20,346 bases of DNA from a virus, in the UHGV virus genome UHGV-0243115; one strand, written 5' to 3'. A program made the position numbers and the translations under genes. Below are positions 15,148 through 20,346 of the stretch, piece after piece (the first letter of the stretch is position 1; each line of letters starts with the position of its first letter). Below the pieces are notes generated by a model. That model ran no database searches. It had not been told where the DNA came from and saw nothing but the letters and a program-made list of their open reading frames with translations.

Positions 15148-17898
15148 ACTGGTCAGGCTACCCCGCAGCAGGTCTGCTTTGCGGTGGGCGCGTTCAGTGG
15201 TTTCACTGATTCTCTGTGCGTGCTCTGCGTCACGGATGGCGCGCAGCATGTCAGAAAGCACGGTAACGGGGGTTTTCATGGTGTTCTGGTCCTGCTGAAG
15301 TGTGGATGCCAGGTGTGCGGCGGCTTCGGGGTCTGATGCCCCCAGCTGTTCCAGATAGCTGGCGACCGGGTTATGGCGGATCTCCGTGCTGCTTACGCCG
15401 TGATTACGGCTCAGGCGCTGCCAGAGTTGCGTGATTCGGCTGTCCGGGCGGGTATCTGGTTTGCGTACAATTTCAAATCCCTGCGGTGCAATGATGCTGC
15501 CGTCAACGTACAGACTGCCGCCCCGTAACAGGTGCTGCATCTGCTGTTCACCGATATGCAGGCCGAGAGATTCAGCAGACTCCCGCCATTCTTTAGCGAG
15601 TAACTCGTGGTTATCAGGCAAAGGCCGTGGCTGTTTGCGGCTCTGTGTCCAGTTCTGCATTTCATCACTGCTGTTTTTTGCCTGTTTGTCACGCAGCGAA
15701 CGCATCAGCGCCCGGCGTTCGTGCCGTTTCAGTGAGCGCATCCATTCATTCACGTCAACGCCGTCAGGAAGCTGCGGCCACGGTGCTGGCCGTTCTTCCG
15801 GCTGTTCTGTCCCGTTGTTGTCCGTTTCCTGTACACGGGGACAGTTATTGCCACGAGTCCAAGGGGCGGTAGGGCCGCCCTGAAGGTCAAAACCATTTTC
15901 GCGGGCGCTGTCTTCCGCTTCCGGTTTACGTCTTACCAGCTTCCAGTTATCCGGGTGCGTGCACACGCGGGAAGACTCCCCGATGAGCGGCGACCAGATC
16001 CCGTAAATCTGTACACTCTGCTCGCCGTAATCGTTCAGCTCATCTGCGAGGTCGTAGGCGGTGCGAATCAGGTAGTCTTTACGTGGAACAAGTACGCCGC
16101 CCTGTTTTTCAATGTAGGAGGCAAAACACCCGGCATCAGCGGCAGCGAGTACCGCATCCATTGCATCATCCTTCAGCCGTTGCGGGCCTTCCGGGTTGCG
16201 TGCCATCTGGCTGGCAAGGCGGCGGAGTTCACGCCATACCTGACGGGAGGGGATGCCAAAGAACTGGAACTGGCGGACCCGATGAAGACGCGCCCAGCCA
16301 ATGGCGCGCTCCACGCTCTCGGCCATTGATTTTCCGGTTTCGTGGTCAACGCGTGGCTTGCCCGTTTTCGGGTCGATGCCATCTACGGCGCGGCTGTCCA
16401 GGTTTTTTCCGATGTAGGTCGCGATATAGCTGGTTGGTGTGCCTTTTGAGCCGTCGACATACTCCGCCTTAAAGCGCGGAGTAATATCATCGCCCAGTTC
16501 GTGACGATCTTCCTGAATGGCAATATCGCGGGTGATGGCCACGATGCTGTCGATTTCTTCCGGATGAGCAAAGACCATCATATGCCAGTGCACGGTGCCG
16601 TCATGGTGAGGCTCCACCGTGCGGATGCCATACCAGCGCAGGCCGTCGCGGTTCAGTTTTTTGCGGACCGCCGCAAAAAACGTGTTAACCAGGTAATCGC
16701 TGGAGTCGCGCATGGTGGCCCCGTTCCATTTGGGGTTCGGATGACCGTTCTCCGTTGTTGCGTGGTATTTTGACGGGCAGGTGACAGTCAGAAACACCGC
16801 TTTGTCACCACGGGCTTCGGCCAGAAGTTCCAGCCCCTTCATGGTGGCCATCATTTCTGCCTTACGGTGAACCGGGTTACTTACTCCCGCGTAATACACT
16901 GTCTCGAGATCAATCGTGAACCCGTCTTCATTTTCCAGCATGAAACTTTTCAGGAAATCGCGTGTTTTCTCGCGCTGTGCGCGAAACTCGCTTAACGCGT
17001 CCTGGCTCAGATAGGGCGATGTTTTTCTGGAAACCAGACAGGCGGCGCGGAGTTGTTCTTCTCTCCACTCGCAACGTAACAGCCACAGTTTGCGTTTCCA
17101 CCATTCTGCACAGGTCAGGCGAAGGATTGCGCCCGGCAGCAGCTCCGTGTCCGGTTCGTTCCTCCGGTCTTTGTCTGTTGTCAGTGCGTCATAATGTGGA
17201 GGCATGGCGTGCAGGTGTAACGCCATGCGGGCCAGCATCTGATACGCCTTCAGCGTTACATCCATGGTCAGTTCGCCATCGGTCGCGCCAAAGCCATCGC
17301 AGAGTTTTTCGAAGGTGCTGCTGAACATCGCCGCCGTCATGGTGGCCAGTGTCTGTATCTGGTGTTTGTTGAGCTGCGGCAGGTAAAGCAAATCGTCCAG
17401 GCGTTCGCGTCCGGCAAGGGAGCGATAACCCTGTGTCAGCCAGCGGTGATCGGTGCGCTCCAGACGTTCGAATATTTTGCGCAGGTTTCCGCGCGCGTAG
17501 CGTTCAGCCTGCCAGCTCTTTTTGCCTTTCTGACGATCGGCTTCCTGTTTTTTGCGCAGGAAGGAGAGGTGGCGAATAAGCGGATCGCGCAGATAGGACG
17601 GCAGCAGGCGCAGCGAGGCCATGGCTTCATCCACCGCGCCGCGTGCCTGTTTTCTGGCATCTCCTGCCAGTGTGATGGTTTTGTCCTGTTTTTCCTGTGC
17701 GTCCAGGCTTTTATTAATCAGGTTGCCCAGCGGCGTTGCGGAGAACGCCGCATCAGCCATTTCCTGGCGGCGCTCGTTCTCTACCCGGTAGGCATCCAGC
17801 CAGGAGGAAAGCGCGGATTCAGGAGCGGGGATCCCCGTTCCTTCACGCCCCACTGCGTGGCGCGGTTGTTGCCAGTCCCTGATGTACTCTGCCGTCAT
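15076..17898 (-). CDS. A: Replication initiation protein gpA (HUH rolling-circle endonuclease)
   Basis: 940-aa ORF containing an HUH-type motif (TVHWHMMVFA) and a paired-tyrosine motif (SYIATYIGK); position upstream of the hotspot matches P2 gene A. Confidence 0.88.
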   Translation of the reverse strand: MTAEYIRDWQQPRHAVGREGTGIPAPESALSSWLDAYRVENERRQEMADAAFSATPLGNLINKSLDAQEKQDKTITLAGDARKQARGAVDEAMASLRLLPSYLRDPLIRHLSFLRKKQEADRQKGKKSWQAERYARGNLRKIFERLERTDHRWLTQGYRSLAGRERLDDLLYLPQLNKHQIQTLATMTAAMFSSTFEKLCDGFGATDGELTMDVTLKAYQMLARMALHLHAMPPHYDALTTDKDRRNEPDTELLPGAILRLTCAEWWKRKLWLLRCEWREEQLRAACLVSRKTSPYLSQDALSEFRAQREKTRDFLKSFMLENEDGFTIDLETVYYAGVSNPVHRKAEMMATMKGLELLAEARGDKAVFLTVTCPSKYHATTENGHPNPKWNGATMRDSSDYLVNTFFAAVRKKLNRDGLRWYGIRTVEPHHDGTVHWHMMVFAHPEEIDSIVAITRDIAIQEDRHELGDDITPRFKAEYVDGSKGTPTSYIATYIGKNLDSRAVDGIDPKTGKPRVDHETGKSMAESVERAIGWARLHRVRQFQFFGIPSRQVWRELRRLASQMARNPEGPQRLKDDAMDAVLAAADAGCFASYIEKQGGVLVPRKDYLIRTAYDLADELNDYGEQSVQIYGIWSPLIGESSRVCTHPDNWKLVRRKPEAEDSARENGFDLQGGPTAPWTRGNNCPRVQETDNNGTEQPEERPAPWPQLPDGVDVNEWMRSLKRHERRALMRSLRDKQAKNSSDEMQNWTQSRKQPRPLPDNHELLAKEWRESAESLGLHIGEQQMQHLLRGGSLYVDGSIIAPQGFEIVRKPDTRPDSRITQLWQRLSRNHGVSSTEIRHNPVASYLEQLGASDPEAAAHLASTLQQDQNTMKTPVTVLSDMLRAIRDAEHAQRISETTERAHRKADLLRGSLTSGNKKQTETGLTNPVNEQKTCRDI

Positions 17899-17904
17899 AG
17901 TGAT

Positions 17905-18270
17905 TTACTTCGTCATGCCATTCAGGGTGTCGCGGCAGACTGTAGCCAGCCGCTGAATTTCCAGCACGGTGTCTTCTGTGTCGGCATGGCGATGTGTGAT
18001 GCGGATGCTGTCGGCAATCACATCGACGATTGCAGAGGATGGGCGCTGGTAAATGCCAATAACGGACGGGGTGCCACCTTCAATGCGGTAAAGCCTGTAA
18101 TTTCCCTCGTGGCTGTCAATCATGTAGCGACCATCAATAACAATCTTTCCGTCAGCGAGCTGCGGTACAGGCAGGGATTTCAGGTACATGTCATAACGAT
18201 CACGCACGCGAGCGGCAAGATCACGTTCTGTGTTGAGCAGGTATTCAAGAAAGTCGTTGGCGAGAATCAT
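17905..18270 (-). CDS. Hypothetical early protein (P2 orf80-83 neighbourhood)
   Basis: 121-aa ORF with RBS GAGGA upstream; ends 6 nt before the A start. Confidence 0.6.
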   Translation of the reverse strand: MILANDFLEYLLNTERDLAARVRDRYDMYLKSLPVPQLADGKIVIDGRYMIDSHEGNYRLYRIEGGTPSVIGIYQRPSSAIVDVIADSIRITHRHADTEDTVLEIQRLATVCRDTLNGMTK

Positions 18271-18286
18271 TGCGGCAATCCTCTTG

Positions 18287-18415
18287 TTACAGATGTGCGA
18301 AGGCCTCCCGCCGCAAGGTGCAGGAAAGGCCCGGAACAGGAATTAATGGAGTTTGTTTTGCTGCCGGATGAGCTGCTGAAGCCCGACGTGGTTTCCGGCA
18401 GTTGGAGGTGCTCAT
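18287..18415 (-). CDS. Possible small ORF (42 aa, basic, Pro/Ala-rich), translationally coupled to upstream gene
   Basis: ATG at 18415 overlaps the upstream stop as ATGA; encodes MSTSNCRKPRRASAAHPAAKQTPLIPVPGLSCTLRREAFAHL; fills an otherwise empty 141-bp gap. Not in ORF track. Confidence 0.3.
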   Translation of the reverse strand: MSTSNCRKPRRASAAHPAAKQTPLIPVPGLSCTLRREAFAHL

Positions 18416-18657
18416 GCTCTGATTTCCCTCAGTAGCTGGTTGAACATCTGGGTTAGTGGGTTGCTACACCCAAACGGCATCGGGTTTACCTGATAAGAAA
18501 AGCGACCGCCTGTTTTGCGCTCTTTTCTTATGACTGAACCGCTGCGCCAGAGACGGCGTAGCTCCGCATTAATGGTTGTGGTTGGTGTATTCAGTGCTGC
18601 GGCGATTTCTCCACCGCTACAACCCGGATTGGCAGCGATGTAGTCCAGAATGATCAT
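18412..18657 (-). CDS. Small putative winged-helix DNA-binding protein
   Basis: 81-aa ORF ...GEIAAALNTPTTTINAELRRLWRSGSVIRKERKTGGRFSY...; helix-turn-helix then beta-hairpin-like pattern. Confidence 0.55.
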   Translation of the reverse strand: MIILDYIAANPGCSGGEIAAALNTPTTTINAELRRLWRSGSVIRKERKTGGRFSYQVNPMPFGCSNPLTQMFNQLLREIRA

Positions 18658-18857
18658 CTGCGTGACTCCTGTACCTGTCTGATAAGATTTACCTGCACCA
18701 CGTTGGTGGCGCAGAAGTAAGTGCCGTCAGTGAGATAGATGTGATGTGCATCCTTTTCTGAACGGTGTTTGTCGATTGTGGTAATCAGGCGTTCGTCAAC
18801 TTCGTATTCACGTCCTCTGGAGGTGAAACGAACGACAGGAAAATGCTTAATTGCCAT
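18654..18857 (-). CDS. Hypothetical early protein (67 aa from ATG 18857)
   Basis: Track ORF 18654..18908 starts at a GTG; the internal ATG at 18857 has a perfect AGGAGG RBS 5 nt upstream (MAIKHFPVVRFTSRGREYEVDERL...). Confidence 0.6.
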   Translation of the reverse strand: MAIKHFPVVRFTSRGREYEVDERLITTIDKHRSEKDAHHIYLTDGTYFCATNVVQVNLIRQVQESRR

Positions 18858-18943
18858 TACGCCTCCTTGGCGTGTGCGAATACCTCCGCGAATGCGGATT
18901 GTTTTCACATTTTCTTATTTAACCTGGGGTCTTATTTGCGCGG

Positions 18944-19057
18944 TTATTCTTCAGTGAAAAAGCGTTCAATCTTTTTTACTGAATTAATAATTCGCATAAT
19001 CCCAATGGCGCAGACCACCGAAATAATCAGAACAAGCCATGAGATAAATATACTCAT
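18944..19057 (-). CDS. Unannotated small membrane peptide (37 aa, single TM helix)
   Basis: ATG at 19057 overlaps the stop of the upstream 81-aa gene (ATGA). Encodes MSIFISWLVLIISVVCAIGIMRIINSVKKIERFFTEE: hydrophobic helix then charged tail. Not in ORF track (too short). Confidence 0.5.
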   Translation of the reverse strand: MSIFISWLVLIISVVCAIGIMRIINSVKKIERFFTEE

Positions 19058-19299
19058 GCGATATTTCCCAGCTTATACGGTTCAATATGTTCCCCGCATT
19101 CTGCGGCACAGATCAGCTCGGAAAGTTCGTTAAGTGCATCCAGATCATCAGCGTAAAAAGCCACGTCATACAGACTTCGGATTGCTCTGGTCAATGAGTC
19201 ACGGGCCGCACGTTCAGCATGAGCGCCTGATGCACTTAAGCGAAAATAAAAACGCTCAAGTGCTTTGTTAATGAGAGTTTTATATTCTTTGCCCATCAC
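19054..19299 (-). CDS. Hypothetical early protein
   Basis: 81-aa ORF in the co-directional early gene run; no recognisable motif. Confidence 0.5.
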   Translation of the reverse strand: MMGKEYKTLINKALERFYFRLSASGAHAERAARDSLTRAIRSLYDVAFYADDLDALNELSELICAAECGEHIEPYKLGNIA

Positions 19300-19307
19300 A
19301 ACGCCCT

Positions 19308-19595
19308 TTAATCTGCTTTCTGTATTTCAGCTTCTGAATCCATACAAATAATTTCGATATAGGGTTCATCGCCATTAACCTGGCGTGCCTTTTCAGCTTC
19401 GCTAATGATTTCTCGTACGGTCTGGTACGGAAGTTCCACAAGCAGTCGCGTGCCGTTCAGATAAACGTAAGTGGCTTCGTCGGCTCCGTTTTTACCCGCC
19501 GGAGTCACTCCGTCAATAGCGGATGCACGTAATAACAGTTCACCGCGAAAATCAATAAAACGGATAAATACACCTTGTGCATGGTCTTTGGTCAT
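19308..19595 (-). CDS. Hypothetical early protein (95 aa from ATG 19595)
   Basis: Track ORF 19308..19709 overlaps the upstream gene; the internal ATG at 19595 (MTKDHAQGVFIRF...) sits 11 nt after that gene's stop with an AGGTG RBS. Confidence 0.55.
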   Translation of the reverse strand: MTKDHAQGVFIRFIDFRGELLLRASAIDGVTPAGKNGADEATYVYLNGTRLLVELPYQTVREIISEAEKARQVNGDEPYIEIICMDSEAEIQKAD

Positions 19596-19605
19596 AAAGC
19601 ACCTG

Positions 19606-19944
19606 TTATAAATCAGTCTGTTTAATAAAACTTTGCCCGCGAAGCAGACGATCAACCGTGCGAAGTGCTTCGTATAATGTGAAATCCTGCCCGAACTGAT
19701 TGTCGCCACAGCTCAATGCAAAAATGCGGTTTCCGGTAAACGGATTGCGTGGGCATTTGTGGATCACGATTCCAGCTTTCTCAATCAGCCAGGTGTGCTC
19801 GCCGATTTGTTTTACTGGGTAGCCATCCGGCGTTGCGTGTGTATCACTCAGGCTGTAGCGGATGTTGCTGCGTGATGCACTGGTAGTGAAACGGTTAGCG
19901 TGGCGTTCTGTTCCGGTACGAAAATTACGGCGTTGCTTCAGCAT
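19606..19944 (-). CDS. Hypothetical early protein; 5' end and upstream region lie inside the 140-bp direct repeat
   Basis: 112-aa ORF MLKQRRNFRTGTERHANRFTTS...; a GAGG RBS sits upstream of ATG 19944. Confidence 0.6.
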   Translation of the reverse strand: MLKQRRNFRTGTERHANRFTTSASRSNIRYSLSDTHATPDGYPVKQIGEHTWLIEKAGIVIHKCPRNPFTGNRIFALSCGDNQFGQDFTLYEALRTVDRLLRGQSFIKQTDL

Positions 19945-20017
19945 AAAATGACACCTCGTTATTTTGTCATCTGCACGTATTTTTCTGCGCTCCTGATTGT
20001 TTTCAGGAAAAGAGCGA
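19878..20017. repeat. Direct repeat copy 1 (140 bp, perfect)
   Basis: 19878-20017 is identical to 20207-20346 (offset 329 bp); contains the first 22 codons plus the upstream region of the 112-aa gene. Confidence 0.9.
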
Positions 20018-20215
20018 AGAGATTTACTGTGCGTCTTGAGTTCTTTTCACTTTGAGCGTTTAGCAGCGTTCTATCTCTACCGCGATGAGCATGGGTTACC
20101 AGTACTTGAAGAAAGCCTGAAAGATTACGCAAAGCGTACCAACCAAGCTGTTAACACAGTGAAAAGACAGGCTGACAGAGGTTCAATTCCCATCAACCAA
20201 GATGAACACTGGTAG
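19997..20215 (+). other. ORF fragment with a Cox/excisionase-like helix-turn-helix signature; no canonical start codon (possible gene remnant)
   Basis: Track ORF (TTG start) ends ...LKDYAKRTNQAVNTVKRQADRGSIPINQDEHW*, which resembles the P2 Cox HTH segment (FAKLIGKSTGAVRRMIDKGKLPV); no in-frame ATG/GTG; stop lies inside repeat copy 2. Confidence 0.3.
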
Positions 20216-20346
20216 TGAAACGGTTAGCGTGGCGTTCTGTTCCGGTACGAAAATTACGGCGTTGCTTCAGCATAAAATGACACCTCGTTATTTTGTCATC
20301 TGCACGTATTTTTCTGCGCTCCTGATTGTTTTCAGGAAAAGAGCGA
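20207..20346. repeat. Direct repeat copy 2 (at least 140 bp; truncated by window end)
   Basis: Identical to 19878-20017. On the minus strand it recreates the same RBS/ATG (20273) and 22 codons, then runs into the unique segment and stops after 4 more codons (MLKQRRNFRTGTERHANRFTTSVHLG*). Confidence 0.9.

Follow-up and report, generated by a model that had tools for sequence, protein, structure and literature searches.

A conserved 37-codon gene for a predicted single-pass membrane peptide, overlapping the DUF4754 gene in the early operon of P88-like Escherichia coli prophages

Bacterial type I toxins are proteins of fewer than 60 amino acids (aa) with one transmembrane (TM) helix, which act by depolarisation through oligomeric pores, and MgrB, acting on PhoQ, illustrates how a small single-TM protein can bind and regulate a larger membrane protein (PMC12648545). 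In phages 186 and P2, small early-operon genes lie between the switch region and the replication genes, and the last of them before a non-coding gap with an intra-operon terminator are fil and dhr (186) and orf78 and B (P2); according to their record annotation, fil and dhr act on the host, blocking division and depressing host replication. Further small single-TM regulators of larger membrane proteins are AcrZ, which acts on AcrB, and Caulobacter SidA, which acts on FtsW. The element considered here is a small open reading frame (ORF) of 37 codons in the viral genome UHGV-0243115, a stretch of 20,346 nucleotides (nt) that was analysed as a whole and is referred to below as the window; the ORF overlaps the end of a DUF4754 gene on the minus strand and, like the genes of 186 and P2, is the last small one before a non-coding gap. 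Judged from its pattern of substitution, it is almost certainly a real coding gene that selection maintains. The best explanation of the whole, which is given about an even chance of being right, is that this gene of an early (Pe-type) lytic operon would specify a 37-aa single-pass inner-membrane peptide with the DUF4754 protein as its partner.

Conservation of the frame was followed across 165 DUF4754-encoding loci, 160 of them taken from IMG/VR and the others from phage and genome records; a minority of the IMG/VR contigs was retrieved by both scans, so the 160 are not all independent. A first-pass annotation of the window had treated the ORF as more than a chance reading frame and had proposed its conservation in relatives as a check, and both points are borne out by a frame that is open in essentially all relatives and is under purifying selection. 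At least 33 codons are kept in 163 of the 165 loci and exactly 37 aa are encoded in 150, while earlier frameshifts occur in only two loci, at homopolymers in both. Among 41 full-length haplotypes, the pairwise ratio of nonsynonymous to synonymous substitution rates (dN/dS) is 0.26 in the frame of the ORF, whereas the two remaining sense frames give 1.42 and 1.02; in the ORF it falls to 0.195 for codons 1–32 and is the same, 0.20, for the TM codons (2–21) and for codons 22–32. A minimal reconstruction for codons 2–32 gives 21 synonymous and 17 nonsynonymous events where 25–29% synonymous events would be expected, a synonymous excess with a binomial p of 5e-5 to 5e-4. Between divergent lineages, the proportion of synonymous differences (pS) reaches a saturated 0.50–0.81 against a proportion of nonsynonymous differences (pN) of 0.21–0.28, corresponding to a dN/dS (omega) of 0.23–0.34, whereas omega in the other frames of the same comparisons ranges from 0.65 to 5.45 and is at least 0.83 in all but one.

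These values also bear on the idea that the ORF arose by chance between genes or simply shadows an ORF on the opposite strand. The ORF is very short, and an antisense frame with the same wobble positions has a dN/dS of 0.32 and remains open for 122 codons in the window, as the plus-strand ORF 18765..19133, which spans three minus-strand genes. However, the low antisense ratio is an expected artefact, because third positions are shared with the sense gene, and the plus-strand ORF was rejected as a gene of its own since stop codons interrupt it in 60 of 83 haplotypes. The sense frame, by contrast, is unbroken in over 98% of loci and survives about 45% protein divergence with synonymous sites saturated, which leaves the chance or shadow explanation scarcely credible.

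The product is very probably a single-pass membrane peptide, as the models predict. Its best 19-aa window, residues 3–21 (IFISWLVLIISVVCAIGIM), has a Kyte–Doolittle mean of 2.81 and a Hessa sum of -3.35 kcal/mol, and AlphaFold2 run with the family alignment builds one continuous helix over residues 2–35 with a mean predicted local distance difference test score (pLDDT) of 89; the single TM segment claimed from the sequence at first reading is thus matched by a confident spanning segment within a single helix. Substitutions in the TM part are exchanges among I, L, V, M and A. The tail that follows contains four K/R residues (R22, K28, K29 and R32) against three D/E residues and has a hydrophobic moment of 2.14, and the hydrophobic segment is preceded by Met-Ser alone. 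Since the N-terminus is limited to Met-Ser and the tail is basic, the positive-inside rule predicts an N-out/C-in topology. Among the 37-aa relatives, S6, W7 and G19 are conserved in at least 90%, and K28, K29, I30 and F34 are invariant; once the 45-aa and other length variants are added to the comparison, K28 alone is invariant and E31 is kept in about 90%. Residue 22 is usually R, although a few members have K, Q or P instead. A lipoprotein or a cleavable signal peptide, which would call for a basic n-region and a lipobox [LVI][ASTVI][GAS]C with an invariant Cys, was considered as an alternative product, with residues 13–16 reading SVVC or SVAC; it was rejected because the MS N-terminus carries no K/R and no basic n-region and because Cys16 is not conserved, the homologues P0033, P0098 and P0102 having S, M or F at this position.

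The start of the gene is set by its junction with DUF4754, where the operon strand reads ...GGA AAT ATC GCA TGA GTA.... The overlap of the ATG with an upstream stop as ATGA, reported in the first-pass annotation, is visible in the window, and the upstream gene is DUF4754. The ATG overlaps the DUF4754 stop in all loci of the 165-locus set except the indel-ridden record of phage 503458, and the same ATGA overlap is present in the divergent loci L168, L169, L173 and L174. The peptide of phage 503458 (locus L085, NC_049341), at first sight a "57% identical" divergent homologue, was discarded on account of the many single-base indels of its record; these indels run across both DUF4754 and the small ORF, and the record looks like a low-quality assembly. 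Upstream of the ATG, the Shine–Dalgarno (SD)-like site of the window pairs with the 3' end of 16S rRNA at -4.6 kcal/mol, whereas the same site in divergent lineages reads GAGGAG, GAGGTG or AAGGGG, with duplex energies of -7.6 to -8.5 kcal/mol in L168, L169 and L173; on this comparison, the window lineage, having the weakest SD site, is seemingly the most coupling-dependent of the lineages compared. The peptide is thus probably translated in coupling with DUF4754: the conserved overlap fits the coupling that had been asserted for the window, where the overlap is what is seen and coupling is its interpretation.

Two other statements of the first-pass annotation do not hold. The ORF does not exactly fill the space to the next gene, as had been stated, because its stop lies at 18944 and the RefSeq start of the next gene is an ATG at 18857, which leaves 86 nt of non-coding sequence; the AAGGAGG in front of this ATG pairs strongly with the 3' end of 16S rRNA (-11.4 kcal/mol), and an in-frame GTG at 18908 was rejected as a start for the same gene, relatives having GTA or CTG there. 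Nor is the ORF unannotated, since it is present in RefSeq/PGAP, GenBank and UniRef records. PGAP annotates the identical sequence in E. coli SE11 as a "hypothetical protein" (ECSE_RS28375 / WP_000021668.1), the records of phage P88 list it as gp07, "membrane protein" (AIZ95115.1 in GenBank and YP_009113050.1 in RefSeq), two further phage records label it "putative membrane protein", and UniRef names it "Prophage membrane protein", with the exact sequence on at least 1000 contigs. The small peptide gene is therefore already catalogued in public databases. The window peptide resembles the P88 gp07 / WP_000021668 family over its full length and occupies the same position, with its ATGA directly after DUF4754 and upstream of the GPA gene; as a member of this family nothing sets it apart from P88 gp07 / WP_000021668.1, which are themselves database predictions. 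The small phage membrane proteins to which it belongs are a familiar class, the gene is already annotated, and no specific or surprising mechanism emerges from it.

Beyond this family, the peptide has no counterpart in the collections that were searched: Pfam returned no family at E values up to 1, PADLOC no match and the PDB sequences no match, the best PHROGs hit was phrog_5620 at an E value of 0.58, and the sole NCBIfam hit, to a 5TM model, stayed below threshold at 13.4 bits (cutoff, 35). A protein word-index search queried with the 41-aa read-through allele P0014, which ends in ...FFTEEQPRK, collected a family of 83 clusters at 90% identity. A profile of 29 family members run against 1.84 billion representative proteins produced just 17 matches, all from the peptide's own family, the 41-aa forms included. 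Copies in Xuanwuvirus phages are 84–97% identical to the window peptide, that of P88 being 92% identical, and as far as these searches indicate, the family is confined to P88-like prophages of the Escherichia group.

The most distant members are three 41-aa homologues of about 55–60% identity, namely MSVFLSWVILIISVLMAIGIMRIIEALKNIESLFTGEERRK, MNILISWLILILAIICAVGTMRIINGIKTIESLFTGDKRHK and MSIFMSWVVLVLAIIFAIGIVKIITVIKAIEALFTGDKHHK; named members of two of these 41-aa clusters come from E. coli, and the third cluster (P0102) is a single NCBI record. Their loci have the order DUF4761, DUF4754, a 4-nt overlap, the peptide gene, a gap of about 80 nt, variable genes and Phage_GPA. In the window, GAA TAA CCG CGC AAA TAA aligns to GAA GAG CGC CGT AAA TAA of L173, and by this alignment the 37-aa form is a 41-aa form truncated by a nonsense codon (TAA at codon 38), which makes the extreme C-terminus dispensable. 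The loss of one T from the run at codons 32–34 yields 45-aa alleles (...ERFSLxNNxxNKTxx) in about 12 of the 165 loci and in several haplotypes, and the same form makes up the NCBI clusters P0037 (63 members), P0044 and P0046 (49 contigs each). Because several independent haplotypes and NCBI clusters of up to 63 members carry them, the 45-aa forms look like real alleles and not solely sequencing errors.

The gap that follows the ORF contains a 5-bp hairpin that is more conserved than the surrounding coding sequence; each of the four divergent lineages has it too, even where protein identity is down to about 55%, but with a different loop. Within the stem, four of the five pairs vary little or not at all, and the pair next to the loop shows a compensatory switch of C-G to U-A in five distinct sequences (22 haplotypes); a 13-bp extension suggested by the minimum free energy fold was rejected for want of covariation, only the inner 5 bp holding. 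Beside the hairpin the operon strand has an A-tract, the complement of a T-tract. Read on the plus strand, the hairpin is followed by a T-rich run and has a terminator-like score; the operon strand has no U-tract. In P2 and 186, the equivalent gap holds a sense-strand terminator, whereas the hairpin of this locus lacks a downstream U-tract on the operon strand. Right after the hairpin, the next gene begins MAIKHF... in the window and MKAKE..., MHAKE... or MLRTNQ... in otherwise near-identical relatives (18654-18884; e.g., L006, L026 and L059). Because the downstream gene varies in this manner, the gap and hairpin mark the boundary between a conserved block and a mosaic region.

It might be supposed from this arrangement that translation alone matters, with ribosomes kept on the mRNA up to the hairpin in order to counter Rho polarity or to set the state of the hairpin, and with the peptide itself incidental. 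The universal ATGA coupling agrees with such a role, as does the constant end of the ORF 40–60 nt before the conserved hairpin, and the C-terminal codons are nearly neutral (one synonymous and eight nonsynonymous events in codons 33–37) and tolerate both frameshifts and truncation. Against it stands purifying selection on the amino acids of codons 1–32 (omega of about 0.2, p <1e-3), together with the hydrophobic-for-hydrophobic replacements and, among the 37-aa relatives, the invariance of K28, K29, I30 and F34 and near-invariance of W7, G19 and E31; moreover, a spacer ORF would not keep a TM helix across saturated synonymous divergence. A translation-only role is therefore very improbable.

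The neighbour most closely associated with the peptide is DUF4754, which lies directly upstream of the peptide gene in every locus, the divergent ones included. Its range covers Escherichia, Shigella, a few Salmonella and one Citrobacter phage, the same narrow distribution as that of the peptide, and a scan of genome contigs with a DUF4754 query gave at least one locus, in E. albertii. AlphaFold2 models the DUF4754 protein as a small helical bundle (pLDDT 88.8; predicted template modelling score, pTM, 0.77). In the P88 record KP063541, the same protein is labelled "DNA modification methyltransferase". No Pfam or NCBIfam match and no fold match lends support to this label, its lone trace being a PADLOC type IIG match with an E value of 0.012 over 56 residues, and the label is probably a misannotation.

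On these grounds, the peptide is tentatively proposed to act as a partner of DUF4754, as a modulator in the host membrane, or both, a mechanism whose chance of being correct is set well short of even. Ribosomes that end at the DUF4754 TGA would reinitiate at the overlapping ATG, as the conserved ATGA and the weak SD site suggest, and residues 2–21 of the product would insert as a TM helix that leaves the two-residue N-terminus outside and the basic tail in the cytoplasm, as hydrophobicity and the positive-inside rule predict. The peptide could then form the membrane half of a conserved two-gene DUF4754–peptide module, in which it tethers the DUF4754 protein, itself soluble and helical, or cooperates with it; in addition or instead, it could bind and modulate a host inner-membrane protein during early lytic development. 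A module of this kind is suggested by the strict co-occurrence of the two genes, their coupling and their shared narrow distribution. The function is accessory and not core, since neither P2 nor 186 carries the cassette, and the last 5–9 residues of the peptide are dispensable. MgrB with PhoQ, AcrZ with AcrB and SidA with FtsW offer the nearest models for the second activity; they are comparable in size and architecture, and the proposed mode is likewise helix–helix binding to a membrane protein. However, these regulators have no sequence relationship to the peptide, which differs from them in being phage-encoded and coupled to a soluble partner.

Several results weigh against the proposed partnership. 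No physical or co-evolutionary link between the peptide and DUF4754 was found, and there is no natural fusion of the two among the homologues; the "long" homologues that appeared to be such fusions were rejected as frameshift read-throughs in draft assemblies. The DUF4754 fold gives only generic helical-bundle matches with E values above 0.3 in Foldseek searches of the PDB and BFVD, and a PDB profile search with DUF4754 returned no match. The constraint on the peptide (dN/dS 0.2–0.3) is weaker than that on DUF4754 (0.06 in the close set), and its C-terminus is nearly neutral, with a dN/dS of 0.62 for codons 33–37 among the 41 haplotypes. Literature searches on the peptide (its expression and localisation included), Xuanwuvirus, DUF4754/DUF4761 and the small membrane proteins of P2-like phages yielded nothing relevant. 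Lastly, the sequence features of the peptide suit a stand-alone membrane toxin equally well.

Such a "kil"-type toxin would oligomerise in the inner membrane, dissipate the proton motive force or block an essential membrane machine, the divisome for instance, and so bring about early host arrest; it would resemble a type I toxin that is controlled by the phage repressor instead of an antisense RNA. Type I toxins are marked out by their small size, single N-terminal TM helix and short charged tail, and some of them are prophage-borne (PMC12648545), as is the peptide. TisB, Ldr, Hok/Gef, IbsC, ZorO, DinQ and ShoB share these features and an inner-membrane location, which for the peptide is a prediction, and the very high hydrophobicity of the peptide points in the same direction. 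Its position in the early operon, moreover, matches that of the host-directed Fil and Dhr of 186. However, Fil (75 aa) and Dhr (66 aa, translated from NC_001317) have no TM segment, their best Kyte–Doolittle windows reaching 1.26 and 0.49 against 2.81 for the peptide, and homology or analogy to them was rejected, as both are soluble and without similarity to it. The peptide has no sequence match to any described toxin family in Pfam, NCBIfam or the PDB. Type I toxins, furthermore, are self-contained modules, whereas the peptide gene is an internal overlapping cistron of a repressor-controlled phage operon. A promoter-like site was found near the ORF on neither strand, and among the described RNA families of Rfam, no antitoxin RNA matched the region, the only hit up to an E value of 1 being a chance snoRNA match with an E value of 0.18, far below the gathering score. 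The ORF shows as much synonymous diversity as its neighbouring gene, and because this diversity is not depressed, no overlapping RNA constraint is visible. Taken with the evidence on both sides, a stand-alone toxin controlled in this manner is considered rather unlikely.

The early membrane proteins Imm and Sp of phage T4 provide the basis for another comparison, in which the peptide would act in lytic-phase superinfection exclusion or block injection at the inner membrane. Its predicted inner-membrane location and its status as an accessory gene of one phage lineage are compatible with such a role; however, neither PADLOC nor PHROGs gave a defence or exclusion match, and the tight coupling to a soluble DUF4754 protein speaks against it. 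Exclusion in lysogens, where it usually pays, is disfavoured because the gene lies in an operon that the immunity repressor should keep silent, as extrapolated from the biology of P2 and 186. Superinfection exclusion is accordingly rated distinctly improbable. The roles offered for the peptide in the first-pass annotation, namely host takeover, division inhibition, superinfection exclusion and toxicity, amount to a generic list for small hydrophobic phage peptides. A more elaborate version of the proposed partnership, in which the DUF4754–peptide pair brings a small helical protein to the inner membrane and thereby inhibits an essential host machine there (for example the divisome, lipid II flipping, FtsH or Sec/YidC), or in which the pair together with the hairpin gates the passage from a conserved "switch" block to the mosaic replication block, can only be put forward as a speculative long shot.

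The wider setting agrees with the early-operon location given at first reading: the prophage is P2-like, and the small ORF precedes the replication endonuclease gene in its early operon (Table 1). Over positions 18400-19750, the window matches E. coli SE11 at 100% identity and two temperate phages, P88 and P884B11, at 92–96%; both phages are of the genus Xuanwuvirus in the P2-like family Peduoviridae, and by this identity the host element is a P88-like (Xuanwuvirus, Peduoviridae), P2-like E. coli prophage. Of the 5426 complete E. coli genomes searched, 1397 (26%) contain the prophage region. With the region in about a quarter of complete genomes, the peptide is among the commoner uncharacterised small membrane proteins of E. 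coli, and the purifying selection described above justifies experimental work on its gene.

Table 1. Coordinates of the small ORF, its parts and the neighbouring features in the window
Feature	Coordinates	Strand	Basis or remark
DUF4761 gene	19606..19944	-	Early operon, first in listed order
95-aa protein gene	19308..19595	-	Early operon, after DUF4761
DUF4754 gene, 80 aa from ATG (80/81 aa by start)	19054..19296/19299	-	Pfam PF15946, E 2.9e-54; synteny
Weak Shine–Dalgarno-like GGGA	19066..19069	-	8 nt before ATG; duplex with 16S 3' end
ATGA overlap of peptide start and DUF4754 TGA stop	19054..19057	-	Operon-strand sequence; relatives
Small ORF, 37 codons + TAA, 114 nt, MSIFISWLVLIISVVCAIGIMRIINSVKKIERFFTEE	18944..19057	-	Translation; WP_000021668.1 / P88 gp07
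Predicted TM helix, codons 2–21, SIFISWLVLIISVVCAIGIM	18995..19054	-	Hydrophobicity, dN/dS, AlphaFold2
Basic amphipathic tail, codons 22–37, RIINSVKKIERFFTEE	18947..18994	-	Predicted cytoplasmic
CGC TTT TTC with T5 run (T6 in many relatives), codons 32–34	18956..18964	-	Site of 1-nt deletion
CCG CGC AAA TAA, apparent vestige of four extra codons	18932..18943	-	Still translated in 41-aa relatives (...GEERRK and ...GDKRHK, each then stop)
Non-coding gap, 86 nt, small ORF to next gene	18858..18943	-	RefSeq start at 18857
Hairpin/palindrome TCCGC-N4-GCGGA, 5 bp, then GG on operon strand	18885..18898		Conservation across relatives
67-aa protein gene (MAIKHF...)	18654..18857	-	Early operon, after gap
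MarR-type winged-helix protein gene	18412..18657	-	Early operon
121-aa protein gene	17905..18270	-	Early operon
940-aa replication endonuclease gene	15076..17898	-	Early operon, last in listed order

Two minor observations concern the remainder of the early region. The last 300 or so bases of the window (20049-20346) are colinear with no complete E. coli genome searched: 20049-20206 (158 nt) is the reverse complement of SE11 sequence, and 20207-20346 (140 nt) is an exact second copy of 19878-20017. This inverted piece and the 140-nt repeat leave the cox-like first gene of the early operon scrambled, and the arrangement is either an assembly artefact of the contig end or a true local rearrangement. 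Between the MarR-type and 121-aa genes, RefSeq places a pseudogene fragment of an "ash family protein" without its N-terminus (18267-18386, minus strand), and at the same site P88 carries about 2.4 kb of extra genes, comprising an Ead/Ea22-like gene, a membrane protein, an SPFH/lipoprotein and a derepression protein.

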